Of a stretch of DNA of 64,000 nucleotides, positions 37,101 to 49,100 are shown piece by piece. Under the pieces are notes generated by a model. It had not been told where the DNA came from. It searched no databases and saw only the letters and a program-made list of their open reading frames with translations. Where the stretch lies: the NCBI GenBank assembly GCA_036172245.1, contig JAYWIR010000045.1:868001-932000 (forward strand), written 5' to 3'. Numbering within the stretch: the first letter of the stretch is position 1; every line of letters begins with the position of its first letter. The DNA comes from Raillietiella orientalis. Its lineage: Eukaryota. The translations under genes were made by a program, and so were the position numbers.

Positions 37101-40100
37101 AACCATCTGACTCCTCTCTCTCCGTTCAGGATTGCTTAGTGTTTTTTTTCCTCCTTTTTTCCAAGGATTCTCCAGACTCATTTCGTGTCTTTCGCTTTCT
37201 TCTCTCCTGCTCTTCAGGGTGGTATAGAGGAAGGCTCCACTGACCACCTGCAGCAGCGTTGTGGCAGGTTCAGAGCATGCAGCAGCGAGTTATTCATTGA
37301 GACACACGCTGAACAGCTCGGGAAGAAGGCAAGTGGTCGTTTCCGGTCAGAAAGAGACCCCGAGAGGTTGGCGTTCTTGAGTTACGAATCGTCCTCTTCT
37401 TCCTAGAGGGTGCTGTTGCGACAGACCTTCGAGGGGCCAGCGGAAAGAGTGGTGTCTCAGAGTTCCGAGATGGTTTTGCGAAGAGAAGCCTCCAAGACCG
37501 AACTTTGGTCGGTGAGGCCGAGTTCAAGAGCAGGACATGCCAGCGGCTCCTCTTCAGGTTCCAGCAGACGCCCATCGGGTCTCCATGATCTTTTTCAGCT
37601 GTTCGCTCCTTCGGATGTCCGCTGTATTGCCGTTCTTTCCTTCATTCTGGGAAGAGTCAATTGACTTCAGGGCATACGCGGGGCAGCCAACGAGTAGACT
37701 GGGATCTCTGCTGCCGTGAAGAAGAGGAGAAAGACGTTCCAATGATTTGAAAGAGGCGCATCACATCAGTTTCTTCGCATGCCTCCACGACCTCTACGTT
37801 GGAGCGTCGTAGCGTTCCATCTCATGGGAAAGGATCTTCCTTGCCGTCCAGATGTCATCGCCTTCCGCCCTCATGGATCACCTCTCGGGGTTCAAAGATC
37901 CCGGAGACTTTCAGGAGGCGGGGAAAGCTCTGCTGCCTGCTGCAGATGCTCGGATGCTGTCCACACAGAGTCCAGTAACTCGCAAGGGAATCTGCAGCAG
38001 CAGGATTCTCCCAGTGAACCACCCTGCACTCTCTCCTCAGCCACTCCCAGGGAGTGACCCGTCGCTCACGAGGAGGAATCGACCGACCAGTCCGAGTCAC
38101 AGCGCCCACTAGGGCCGGCAAACGCGAGCATTCGCAGGAAGCCAGTTTCGAGAAGAGTCACGGGGTCGTTGCGCGGATCGACCGCGGCGAGGACTGGAAA
38201 AGTGTAGAGGGGCAGCGAGGTGGGGCCAGCTGCACCGAGTCGTGCGCGCGCTGCTAGAGGCGGTCTGGACCTGGAGGAGGACCTGCCCCAGCAGGTCCTC
38301 CTCCTCCTGCCCGGGTAGCACCCAGCCTTAACCTCGCCTCACAAGCTGGTGGCTGTCGCCTGGAGCCGCCATGCGGCTTGGCACAATCACGGGGCGCTGC
38401 GACCGCTATAGCAGGAGATGGAAGATCCCCTGGTCCTGAGCCAAGAAGCGCGCGATTTTCTGGTGGTTCCCCGAGCAGCTCGCGCGGGTGGAGTGCATGC
38501 CCGCTTTCTGGGCTTTTCTTCAGCCGGCAAGCGATCTCAAGACGAAGGAGAGATTTTCTAGTGCCCTCCCACCTCTTCCAAGTCTGCACGAGAAAAAAGG
38601 AAGTGAGTAGCGAGGAGTCTCCCATCCACGTCAAGGACTAACAGTCCTCCCTGCCGAGGGATGACAGACGAAGGTTCCACTGGAGACGGAAGATTCTGCT
38701 TGCATCCAGGAAGACGGGAATGCAGTTCGGATCACTGGGATGGGTGGAAAAGATGGCTTCTTTTTTCAATGCAGAATCCCGTTTTCCCCCTTTGATGGAA
38801 ACTTCTCGGTTTTCGAGCGAGAAGAGTCCCTTCTTTCCCGAGAAGGCATCACCGGCTGCCTACCTTATGGTGAACACAGGTTCCTTTGGGTCGCTCATCC
38901 CACTGGAATCCTCGGGAAGTTCCCATCTTCTTGCTTCGGAGATCTTCGAAAAACTTCTGGCCGTCAGTCTTCTCCACATACAGTTCTTCCTCGAATGCGA
39001 TTCTGTCCTCCTGAGAGGGAAAAGGGTCATCCGAGAACAGGCTGCTCGCTGAGGCCCCTCGTCGAAAATGGGTGGGTCGGCGCATGGGCGACCCACCCAT
39101 TTTCGTATGAAGAAGAGCAGCAGTGCTTGAAGACGCCGTATGTCCTCGAAGATGAGCCCGCCCTCTTTCTAATCCGAGAGGGTGGAGGGGAGTAACGAAT
39201 GTGTGACAGTGGTGGGACGTCTGGAGTCCGGGCGGCGTCCTCGGGGGGAGAGATTCGGGAACCAGGTAGGCGTAGGGAGTTTCGGTCTCTGGAGAGGCCA
39301 GATAAGAAGCATTTCCAGGGGAGGGGAATCTTGAGCTCGCCTGGGTGAGCACGCGTCGTCGCCACGGAGATGAAGGTGAAACGGGATCCTCTTTGGAGTA
39401 AGAAGGATGGCTTGGAGTACCTCTCCTTGATCGGATGAGTCTGCTGCCATTTTTTCTTGCCTTCCGAGGCCACAGGGGAGCACGATGGAGCTGCGCTTCC
39501 GGCCCCAAGTTCGGATCCTTTGGCTCTTCGCTCTTCGGGAGAAGGCTGAGGGTTCTTTTGAACTCAGAGAACGCGTTTCCGGGACCAGAAACGAATCCAC
39601 AGTATGGAGGTTGGGTTCCCTCTTTCCCCCTTCTCTTCTTTTTCGGAGGCTCACGAGAAAATGGAGGTTAGGAATGGTGGCCTCCGACCATTTGGGTGCG
39701 TAAAGGAGACCGTGAGCGTTCAGATACGCTTCTTTGGATTCTTCCGCGCTCTTTTCCTCGGGAAAACAGACGTCTTCCTCATTTCCTCCCTTCCGCTTTA
39801 TAAAGGCTTTCGAGCAAGCAGCACGAGCAGAGAGAAAAGGAAAACAGATCATCAACCCGCCGTTCCGCAACTGCTAGCTTCCTCTGGACCTTCTTCACCA
39901 CGATGTTGCGCGTTCTAATTGATGCTGGAATCTTCCTACTACCCCTTTTCCTGCCTGTCCTCCGTTCTCGATTTCCATGCGCTCACTGTCGCGAGGGAGG
40001 AGGTCAGCTCTCTCGGAGGCTGCGCCTCTGTGCGGAACGATACGGTATGCGAGCTTTTCGCCTCGGCTTCTGCCGCGGCAGCCTCCTTCAGAACCCTCCT

Positions 40101-46100: not shown

Positions 46101-49100
46101 GGTGCTACCCGGGAAGGAGGAGGAGGACCTGCTGGGGCAGGTCCTCCTCCAGGTCCAGACCGCCTCTAGCAGCGCGCGCACGACTCGGTGCAGCTGGCCC
46201 CACCTCGCTGTCCCTCTACACTTTTCCAGTCCTCGCCGCGGTCGATCCGCGCAACGACCCCGTGACTCTTCTCGAAACTGGCTTCCTGCGAATGCTCGCG
46301 TTTGCCGGCCCTAGTGGACGCTGTGACTCGGACTGGTCGGTCGATTCCTCCTCGTGAGCGACGGGTCACTCCCTGGGGGTGGCTGAGGAGAGAGTACAGG
46401 GTGGTTCACTGGGAGAATCCTGCTGTTGCAGATTCCCTTGCGAGCTTTCTAGGTTTGCTCTCTGCTAGAGTGTTCCCTTGCGCCAGTAGAGGAGGCAATC
46501 GACCGCCATGGAATAAAACTCGGAGCGCAGCGGGGAGCAGTGGGTGCCCGGGCGGTTTTTGCGTATGGCGGGCGTTCCGGGAGCCTCCTCTTCGCCCGGC
46601 ACGCTCGAGACCTCGTTCCTGTTTTCGTTTCTCGGGACACGCTCTTCACAGGAAAGAACATGACGTTCCCCACGGCATCGGGCGTGGAAGAGGCGCCCTC
46701 TCTGGGATGGGCACCCGAAAGCCGAAATGTTGCATCTCGAAGTCCATTAGTAAAGCAGCCAAGTTTTCAAGAGCGCAATGATGATGATGATGATAATGGA
46801 GTCGGCTGGGAGGGTTGGATAAAAATTAAGTCCTGATTCCTGATTCGCCATCCCTTCCCTTGGAATAACAATAATTAATGCATGAAGAGCTCGGCGTTGC
46901 CAGGAGAGACAGCGCCGCTCGCAAAGAGATGATCGGGAAGCGGCTGATGGAGTCTTCGTCCCGCGATCGCTGAGCGAGTGGGAGGGAGGAGAGGAGAGTG
47001 CCGTGTTGCCGCTAGCTGGGGAGGGATTTGCGCGCATTCCGAGGCGAACGAACACACGTCGCACGCACGCGAGTCCATTTCCATCCAAACAATGGGCAAC
47101 ATTCTCATCCTCAACATCCGCACCTCTTCCTGATCTCCTCCGGGGAGTGAGAAGGGACAGAAGAGTAAAAGACGCTGCTGTTGGCAGAAGGGGGTTTCGA
47201 AAGGTGTCCTCGAATGATTTTCTTCCTGTGGGAGGAGGAAGGAATACCTTTCTCCCTTTCACGCCGTCAGGCCGGATCAAATTTCCCATGTCGCTTCCGG
47301 AAGGCGACAGACGAATCGCGGAGGGCGAGGGGGGTGGTGGTGCCTGCATGCCCTCCCTGCATCCTTCTGCGGTGCGGATCCACTGCTGCTCGCGAGGTCA
47401 CCTTCCACTGACCATCCGAAACCTTCGGTCGCGTTTCGGAGCGCGTGGCCGCACGGCGTTCCTGCACTGCTGTATCCACGCCGGGGGCAGATGCACCGTG
47501 AGAGCGTCCCTCCCATTAGAGGGTGCTCTGTCCTTCCCCACCTCGTCCGAGGTGGCGCCGTCGCCTAACGCTGGCCGCGGAATCGCGCGTGCCTGCCTCC
47601 ATTTTTTTGGCGACCCTGGACCGCCATCTGATGGTGCACGGGAAAATCAAAAATTCATTTAAGCTCCTGATATCGTGGAGCACCCTTTCCTTCTCCCCTC
47701 TTCCAACTTTAAACCCTGCGCAAGAGGACATGCGCTACTCGCAACGTGTGCGAGCTCGTCCTCTGCTTCGCTTGCAGGCTCGAGGGCGCACCATCTTGCC
47801 CTGAAAGAAGCTGCCTCCCCCCTTGTCCCTCACAACTTCGATTTCAGAAGCCCCGGACGGGAGGGCATTCTGCCAAGAGTGGATGATGGGCTGTCCATCC
47901 TGTCCATCCTGACTTCTCCATCCTGTCTTCCCGGAGATGTCTCGGGAAGATGGGACGCCTAAGCAGTGGTAACGGCAGCGACGCTCGGCAGCAGGAGGGA
48001 AAGAGAACCGCCGGCAGCTGACCAACGCGCGGAGGGGAGATGAGAGAAGAGGAAAGAGAGAGAGAGAGGGAAGATCGAAAAATCTCTATTCTTCCTGCTT
48101 AAAGGGGGTGCTTTTCTGGAAGCGGAAGCAGCCACGGAGTCTCCGGACCGCCTTGCAAAGAAGGATCTTTCAGAACCGACCGACCTTGCGAAGTGAATCG
48201 TGCCCTGAGGTCTCGCAGGGTCACTTCCTGTGGCAATGGAACCGTAACATGAGAGACGGGTTGCGAGCGACTGCGTCCCCGGCGGAAGGTTGCTGCGAGT
48301 TCGCCCTTGCGGTGTCCTGGCAATGAACCTGCCCGCGCGCAGGGGCGTGGCATCTAGGAGGAAAGAGGGGTGGGTAAGGGGCAAGGCCGAAAGATGCGCG
48401 CTGGAGTCGATAGAATTTCCTACACCCGGTGCGGACGCATCGACGCCGCAAGTGACGAGCGTTGGAGCGGGAAAAACTCCAAACCTCCCGAAACGGGCAG
48501 CGGCCAAGATTTCGGGATGTCCAGAGATCGTCCAGCTTCTCCGAGCTCACGAGGGAATGCTGCCCCCGAGCGTCCTCGTGAGGTTTTTCCCGAGGGGAGG
48601 GTACTTCGGAAAGAGTCTCTCTGCTTGTTCCCTCGTGGGAGAGGAGCTGAAGAGCGCACTGCTTAATTCGGGAGGCGGACCGGAGGACCGAGAAGACACA
48701 GGACCACAACTAAGCCGGGGGCGAAGGAGGAGCTCATAGGGAAAGGCACTCCGCTGATCGCCGGGGCGAAAGATTATTTGTTCTCGTTTCCTCGCCTTCA
48801 TTCCTTCCTGTTCTCCCCTTCCCTTTTCCCTCCCTCCAATAAATAGTGGAGGTCAATTTGTTTCCTTGGCTTGGCTCCGACGTCTCTTTCCATTTCAATT
48901 TTTTCGAGTTTCCACGGCGGTGGCGTCGTCGTCGGTGGTGAGGCTCGCCTCGAGTTCCGCGCCCACGGTCATCCACCCCCTCAGGAGGTTGCCATGTTCC
49001 GGATCGGGAAGAATCCGCCGCAGTCTAGGTCGCGCTCGGAGGGAGGAGGGGTGCACGGCGGTTCCCAGGTCAGGAAGGAATAGAGGGTAATGGATCGGAA

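Follow-up and report, generated by a model that had tools for sequence, protein, structure and literature searches.

A recent, near-identical inverted repeat around three exons of an invertebrate BRSK kinase gene: a candidate for circular RNA formation and exon skipping

Introduction

Does a long, near-perfect inverted repeat that occupies two introns of one gene fold the pre-mRNA around the exons between its arms, and how did such a pair come into being? This question is raised by a 64,000-nucleotide stretch of the Raillietiella orientalis contig JAYWIR010000045.1 (positions 868,001 to 932,000 of the forward strand; the whole stretch is referred to as the window, and all coordinates count from its first letter). 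An earlier note, made from the sequence alone, had described two 489-bp reverse complements on either side of three exons of a BRSK kinase gene, and had proposed that they could give rise to a circular RNA (circRNA), to exon skipping or to double-stranded RNA (dsRNA). Its general premise, that reverse-complementary matches in introns promote back-splicing as well as skipping, is documented in the available excerpts of three publications (PMC8330042, PMC4617980, PMC13019027). Here, we describe the repeat pair, its host gene and its probable origin, and we weigh what it may do to the RNA. We consider the circRNA, skipping or dsRNA reading of this locus a well-founded prediction that is partly supported, and not a finding.

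Results

The inverted repeat pair

A repeat search of positions 36000-48500 returned a sole inverted pair, 37979-38467 and 45956-46444, whose arms of 489 nt are 98% complementary and are separated by 7488 nt. Compared base by base, the two arms differ at 8 of 489 positions without any insertion or deletion (98.4% identity). Six of these eight differences are transitions and none is located at a CpG, and the longest perfect runs between the arms reach 115, 106 and 96 bp. The repeated segment is non-coding, has a G+C content of 64% and, as seen in the arm comparison, carries an internal 32-nt palindrome with a 14-bp hairpin (38273-38304, with its twin at 46119-46150).

To place this pair among the other repeats of the window, we used two window-wide comparisons. 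The search for repeats of at least 60 nt (14-nt seed) found only one other pair, namely a direct one of 75 nt with 77% identity, and blastn of the whole window against itself (word size 9, E values up to 1e-6) gave nine non-self matches, among which the arm pair scored 847 bits and the remaining eight at most 87 bits (44-169 nt, 70-91% identical). The arm pair is far beyond chance, and no other strong repeat exists in these 64 kb, within which neither a third copy nor a decayed relative of the 489-bp segment was found. Judged by its sequence, the pair is evolutionarily recent and much younger than any other repeat in the window. The earlier note had given precisely these coordinates, which are exact over the 489 nt, and had regarded the pair as far younger than the decayed repeats around it, a view that agrees with the 847 bits of the arms as opposed to at most 87 bits at 70-91% identity for everything else. 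Its figure of about 10 differences was right with respect to the near-identity of the arms and slightly off in the exact number, which we counted as eight.

Older repeats are also present. The only other dispersed repeat seen in the window is an old interspersed family, with members at 44229-44475, 55438-55786, 31415-31715 and 2518-2818, which occurs in both orientations, in the BRSK introns as well as elsewhere, with about 60-170 nt per match and 70-84% identity. In addition, two short near-perfect palindromes are found inside the BRSK introns, at 54416-54468 (53 nt) and 39063-39105 (44 nt), each being about 91% self-complementary.

The host gene and the three bracketed exons

The translation of the exon at 45626-45411 (exon A) matched the mouse and human BRSK2 structures of the PDB with an E value of 8e-39 and the AMPK and MARK kinases with about 1e-19, and the best matches in a collection of 5.8 billion proteins were invertebrate BRSK proteins with up to 93% identity, none of which was identical. 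Four BRSK proteins aligned by tblastn defined one minus-strand gene with exons that are collinear across 63.8-35.2 kb. Based on these homologies, and on the Pkinase and UBA_BRSK profiles matched by exons A-C, we assign the host gene to the BRSK/SAD-1 kinases, in which an AMPK-related kinase domain is followed by a BRSK-type UBA domain; the protein matches further suggest that the source animal has a protostome-like invertebrate genome. The approximate exon positions given by tblastn, all on the minus strand, are 63814-63722, 59427-59335, 58201-58064 and 57598-57440 in the upstream part of the gene, 45629-45408, 40720-40520 and 40487-40263 in the middle part, and 36003-35830 and 35717-35229 in the downstream part.

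Reading the splice sites directly refined the three minus-strand exons between the arms. Exon A (45626-45411; 216 nt, phase 0 to 0) lies between the acceptor ccccaag/GGTGAG and the donor TTGACG/gtcagt, exon B (40720-40521; 200 nt) between ttccgcag/CTCGGT and GTCCCAG/gttggc, and exon C (40476-40258; 219 nt) between ccttctag/GCACAAC and GCATCA/gtaagt. The sites are canonical throughout, the block as a whole opening with AG/GGTGAG at 45626 and closing with CATCA/gtaagt at 40258. According to Pfam, exon A corresponds to the kinase C-lobe (positions 173-253 of the 263 of the Pkinase profile), exon B to the end of the kinase domain plus positions 1-26 of UBA_BRSK, and exon C to the last 15 positions of UBA_BRSK (29-43) followed by a linker. 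The block is preceded by the exon 57590-57440 (HRDLKPEN...EVIK; minus strand, acceptor ccctcag/C, donor ATCAAG/gtgaga) and followed by the exon 36046-35823 (SPLSSPKV...FHRRKLLQ; minus strand, sequence read directly).

Two features of these exons deserve mention in their own right. The downstream exon has two candidate acceptors on the minus strand, 36046 and 36067, which are 21 nt apart and both in frame and could be an alternative 3' splice-site pair that includes or omits seven codons. The intron between exons B and C (40477-40520, minus strand; GT..AG, read directly) is only 44 nt long, with 64% G+C, and needs to be spliced to keep the frame, as 44 is not divisible by three. Its neighbours within the gene are much longer (4.2-11.8 kb), and in one BRSK locus from a metagenome the exons homologous to B and C are about 1.3 kb apart.

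Arm geometry and predicted duplex

In the minus-strand pre-mRNA, the arm at 45956-46444 is the upstream one. Exon 57590-57440 and exon A are separated by an 11.8-kb intron, and this arm sits within it, 329 nt before the exon A acceptor (45626). The arm at 37979-38467 is the downstream one and lies in the 4.2-kb intron that follows exon C, 1790 nt beyond the exon C donor (40258). Hence, the arms are situated in different introns of one minus-strand transcription unit, are complementary to each other in the sense pre-mRNA and bracket exons A-C. A duplex between them in the sense RNA was predicted to comprise 483 pairs with -1149.9 kcal/mol, as compared to -209 and -218 kcal/mol when each arm was folded by itself and to an average of -330 kcal/mol for duplexes of shuffled arms. 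Out of the eight differences, two become G-U pairs and six become mismatches in this sense-RNA duplex. No unusual self-structure was detected for a single arm (z of -1.4 and -0.8).

We set this complementarity among all inverted matches that six introns of the BRSK gene contain or share with one another (n=9). The arm pair ranked first with 847 bits and the next match had 87 bits, the remainder being small palindromes or matches of 20-31 nt; the complementarity of the arms thus exceeds any other among the introns of this gene about tenfold in strength. The next-best match, an older one found by blastn between 46625-46766 and 42334-42499 in the A-B intron (71% over 167 nt), would loop out exon A alone. 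The arm pair is therefore essentially without a competing pairing partner in its gene, unlike the situation in Alu-rich human introns.

Skipping of exons A-C would shift the reading frame, as their 635 nt leave a remainder of 2 when divided by three. The shifted frame stays open through all 74 codons of exon 36046-35823, so that the premature stop of a skipped mRNA would fall further downstream. Taken together, the structural premises of the earlier note (arms in different introns, one transcript, complementarity in the sense strand and three canonical exons) all hold. Indeed, its exon sizes (216+200+219 = 635 nt) were recovered when the splice sites were read directly, its description of the three exons as kinase C-lobe plus UBA was borne out by Pfam and by the BRSK2 structures, and its distances of about 330 nt and about 1.8 kb correspond to the 329 nt and 1790 nt measured here. 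The pre-mRNA duplex of about 490 bp that it had envisaged is likewise possible, with 483 pairs computed across 489 nt, and the skipped mRNA would be frameshifted as it had stated, 635 not being a multiple of three.

What the repeat is and where it came from

When the 400-nt flanks of one copy were aligned locally with those of the other, the scores were 13 and 15, with shuffle means of 12.6 and 11.8. This lack of homology between the flanks excludes that the arms are a recent gene-conversion tract within older, longer repeats. We next looked for the hallmarks of transposons. There is no target-site duplication, the flanks reading ...CCAGTAA/element/TCCCCGAG at one copy and ...CTAGAAAG/element/CCTTATTT at the other, with no direct repeat at either of them. 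Terminal inverted repeats are also missing, the best match of the first 80 nt to the reverse complement of the last 80 nt being 9 nt long (score 7). The ends of the element, CTCGCAAG...CTGGTGGT, show neither TG..CA nor the TC..CTRR by which Helitron-type termini are defined, nor a poly(A) or microsatellite tail. ARAGORN found no tRNA gene (0) and hence no tRNA-like head, no 5S or 7SL head was identified by Rfam, and the arms contain no tandem array, given that Tandem Repeats Finder reported only short, low-score arrays outside of them. With E values of up to 1, the Rfam search of positions 35000-48000 yielded only two chance-level matches far below the gathering scores, namely mir-761 (E 0.42) and sno_ncR3 (E 0.53); the former, located on the internal palindrome, was dismissed as chance, since its 23.8 bits compare with a gathering score of 82.

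At the protein level, Pfam was run on 65 long frames of the window, of which four overlap copy 1 and one overlaps copy 2, and gave no match in the arms; nor was there a transposase or reverse-transcriptase signal in these frames. A 90-aa frame of the arm had 17 word candidates in the 5.8-billion-protein collection, none of which scored. A 79-aa frame, searched against 1.84 billion representatives, had one match (E 1.6e-5) to a protein of 1266 aa in which a Drc1-Sld2-like module is repeated. We rejected this match as chance, because its score sums six weak stretches, each about 29-33% identical, with pairwise E values of 2e-4 or worse.

At the DNA level, an exact 24-mer of the arm had no matches (0 each) in metagenome, viral and prokaryote contigs. 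Relatives of the BRSK gene do occur in metagenome contigs, in which the search pattern was matched by 591 stretches; 465 of these encode relatives, of which 80 were kept. None is a close relative, the best exon identity among the 80 kept being 90%. The 489-mer was present in 0 of these 80 BRSK-bearing loci, and DNA-level alignment to them was confined to exons.

The junctions of the two copies were also compared with the element itself. Eight tests of microhomology at the four junctions (longest exact word shared by a 120-nt flank and the element) gave no convincing case, the smallest shuffle counts being 2/200, 3/200 and 11/200, the last of which belongs to the 10-mer CGCAAGGGAA, 28 nt from copy 2. 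We further considered whether the whole 8.5 kb could be a transposon with 489-bp terminal repeats. This was rejected, as the enclosed exons are collinear with the gene and have intron positions common to other BRSK loci, and as no direct repeat flanks 37979 and 46444. Inversion with breakpoint duplication, as in the staggered-break model, was rejected as well, since the enclosed exons keep the order and orientation of the rest of the gene.

We therefore suggest that the segment was most probably duplicated on site in the opposite orientation, as might happen when DNA repair inserts a templated patch. The copies are young, have identical termini and lack insertion hallmarks, which fits slightly better with one having been templated from the other than with two insertions. 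Accordingly, we slightly favour a local inverted duplication over two classical transposon insertions.

Neighbouring genes and composition of the window

Outside of the BRSK gene, the window shows a sharp compositional break, with a block of about 12 kb (16000-28000) at 32-41% G+C. This block contains a RuvB-like/TIP49 exon (17091-17717, minus strand) and a gene for a TTLL1 tubulin polyglutamylase (about 20874-24824, plus strand), and the coding frames of both have 41-42% G+C. The DNA flanking the block, including the BRSK exons and introns, has 52-66% G+C and an observed/expected CpG ratio of 0.6-0.97. TTLL1 (20874-24824, plus strand) and BRSK (34937-63814, minus strand) are convergent neighbours. 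In the ostracod Darwinula stevensoni, one protein model of 1134 aa carries both TTL and BRSK domains, which suggests that the two genes are adjacent there, too. The best matches of TTLL1 were to arthropods, with 74-76% identity, and those of the BRSK exons to molluscs, with 93%.

Discussion

Proposed consequence for the RNA

Given the position of the arms, we hypothesize that, once the downstream arm has been transcribed, the two arms of one pre-mRNA may zip into a 489-bp duplex with six mismatches and two G-U pairs. Such a duplex would close a loop of 7.5 kb, or of 2.75 kb if the internal introns had already been removed, and would bring the exon C donor (40258) close to the exon A acceptor (45626), so that exon C could supply the donor for back-splicing. 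Two minority products could be expected, namely a 635-nt circular RNA made by back-splicing, and an mRNA in which exon 57590-57440 would be joined to exon 36046-35823 and which would be frameshifted and devoid of the kinase C-lobe and the UBA domain. Most transcripts would probably be spliced normally, as the upstream intron could be removed while the 7.5 kb to the second arm are being transcribed. The long duplex would also be expected to serve as a substrate for dsRNA-binding enzymes such as ADAR and Dicer.

Taken as a whole, this explanation, meaning a recent local inverted duplication together with RNA looping that favours circRNA formation or skipping, has in our assessment an even chance of being right. 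For its separate parts, we put the odds of a detectable circRNA or skip product at about even, and those of a physiologically important product at low. Several observations weigh against the proposed looping or the proposed origin. The downstream arm is 1.8 kb away from the donor and is made 7.5 kb after the upstream arm, which leaves time for the upstream intron to be removed by ordinary splicing, and this may usually win. The splice sites of exons A-C are ordinary to strong, with a gtaagt donor at exon C and a pyrimidine-rich acceptor at exon A, and this disfavours skipping. Moreover, two of the six transitions give G-U pairs in the sense RNA and four would do so in the antisense RNA; with no bias towards substitutions that preserve pairing, nothing suggests selection for the duplex. 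In an earlier survey of Drosophila circRNAs, as excerpted, complementary sequences were not enriched in the flanking 500 nt (PMC4617980), so the rule of complementary matches is not universal in arthropods. Finally, the argument for a local duplication draws only on the absence of transposon hallmarks.

Alternative explanations

As to the origin of the arms, a competing explanation of real weight, which we consider quite possible though short of probable, is that a young, unclassified, non-autonomous transposable element, present in many copies elsewhere in the genome, inserted twice independently; the RNA would be affected no differently. Both copies share exactly the same two termini, as full-length family members would, their divergence of 1.6% is typical of a young family, and two copies within 8.5 kb are not improbable in a 64-kb window (roughly 1 in 4 by our own estimate). 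In addition, inverted transposon copies such as those of Alu and DNAREP1_DM are, according to the excerpted literature, the usual source of such pairs. Yet target-site duplications are absent from both copies, young as they are, and the element shows no terminal inverted repeats, no poly(A), no TG..CA or Helitron ends, no tRNA, 5S or 7SL head, and no transposase or reverse-transcriptase signal. It also has no third copy or decayed relative in the 64 kb, and no match in the protein collection, in the 80 related BRSK loci or in contigs from metagenomes, viruses and prokaryotes. A further reading holds that the second copy is an assembly artefact, produced by a chimeric read or by a collapsed or mis-joined haplotype, and that the genome has one copy only. 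This is highly unlikely, since the copies differ at eight positions and artefactual copies would normally be identical. Each copy is moreover bordered by unique sequence on both sides, the 7.5 kb between them hold three exons in the right order and orientation with intron positions common to the BRSK loci of other animals, and the window contains no N.

Regarding the RNA, the repeat might be functionally inert, that is, a recent neutral duplication whose upstream arm is spliced out together with its intron before the downstream arm exists, so that no measurable circRNA, skipping or dsRNA processing would be predicted. With 7488 nt between the arms and the downstream arm 1790 nt beyond the donor, with canonical donor and acceptor sequences, with substitutions that show no pairing-preserving bias, and with coding exons that are intact and conserved, so that the gene evidently tolerates the repeat, this reading is possible, but we find it doubtful. 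Indeed, excerpted studies report that far shorter and weaker complementarity suffices elsewhere, such as 13 nt at C. elegans zip-2 (PMC8330042) and about 55 complementary nt, or repeats of less than 40 nt, in fly and human minigenes (PMC4617980), and that long flanking introns, which measure 11.8 and 4.2 kb here, are typical of circRNA exons (PMC4617980). Alternatively, the pair might be an intron-embedded hairpin-RNA (hpRNA) locus, the duplex of which would be diced into 21-22 nt endogenous small interfering RNAs that silence a source gene or element in trans. The arm pair is a long near-perfect inverted repeat within one transcript, as hpRNA loci are, and its 489-bp stem with perfect runs of up to 115 bp is in the range of Drosophila hpRNA stems. 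However, a 7.5-kb loop with coding exons is unlike a dedicated hairpin gene, and protein searches with two frames of the arm gave no convincing coding source for the segment, which makes this reading very unlikely in our view. Returning to the local inverted duplication with RNA looping, we regard as rather unlikely the combined claim that a repair-made, non-transposon duplication has very recently created, de novo, a strong back-splicing and skipping switch or an intronic dsRNA source in a deeply conserved neuronal polarity kinase whose locus is free of competing repeats.

Comparable systems

The locus can be set beside several known systems, which are described here as far as the excerpts of the cited studies go. 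In C. elegans, deletion of reverse-complementary matches from the flanking introns strongly lowered both the circRNA and the matching skipped mRNA, with matches down to the 13 nt of zip-2 being sufficient (PMC8330042). The worm cases, such as zip-2, Y20F4.4 and arl-13, resemble the BRSK locus in that neuronal genes are involved and that complementary sequences lie in the introns around multi-exon blocks (PMC8330042). They differ from it in their matches, which range from 7-13 nt to tens of nt and are in some cases conserved between species, whereas the arm pair described here is 489 nt long, young and without any sign of conservation or of selection for pairing.

The Drosophila Laccase2 circRNA requires that its inverted DNAREP1_DM repeats pair with each other (Kramer et al. 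2015, PMC4617980); in the fly, circularization during transcription is promoted by repeats with a length of about 400 nt, and the introns next to circRNA exons are usually long (PMC4617980). Like laccase2 and PlexA, the BRSK gene is of arthropod type, has long flanking introns and carries an inverted pair of repeats in them. The fly repeats, however, are recognisable transposons with 69-75% identity that lie very close to a single exon (PMC4617980), in contrast to the BRSK arms, which are 98.4% identical, lack transposon hallmarks, leave 0.33 and 1.8 kb to the splice sites and enclose three exons; moreover, the circRNA is a predicted one here. Around human exons that can be skipped, inverted pairs of Alus within 0.5-5 kb are overrepresented, and these intronic inverted repeats of about 300 nt form pre-mRNA stems, are tied to skipping and circularization and are substrates for dsRNA editing (PMC13019027), all of which makes them comparable to the arm pair. 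But Alus form an abundant SINE family and find many competing partners in each intron, whereas the BRSK pair is a single dominant one in a repeat-poor locus, longer and far less diverged. As for the gene itself, a figure legend presents Brsk2 of the mouse among the host genes of circRNAs (bioRxiv 10.1101/567164).

Drosophila hpRNA loci originate from the genes that they target and produce dedicated, short-looped transcripts; the BRSK pair differs from them by a 7.5-kb host-gene loop with three coding exons. What the two have in common, as far as the excerpted study shows, is a long near-perfect inverted repeat in one RNA that is a potential Dicer-2 substrate (PMC10317233).

Significance

The locus is a well-documented candidate of a well-known architecture; it is not a discovery and would not surprise a specialist. 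What sets it apart is the length of the pair, its near-identity, its isolation and its lack of transposon hallmarks. Should RNA data confirm the prediction, the gene would offer an unusually clean natural test of how one intronic complementary pair redirects splicing, owing to a single dominant near-perfect 489-bp pair without competing repeats, three coding exons and a frameshift upon skipping. If true, the prediction would concern a host gene that is needed for neuronal polarity, in which a frameshifting skip would lower BRSK dosage, and it would illustrate that such pairs can arise without transposons. It would also amount to the natural birth of a circRNA locus, the ancestral and derived states of which could be compared between populations or sister species.

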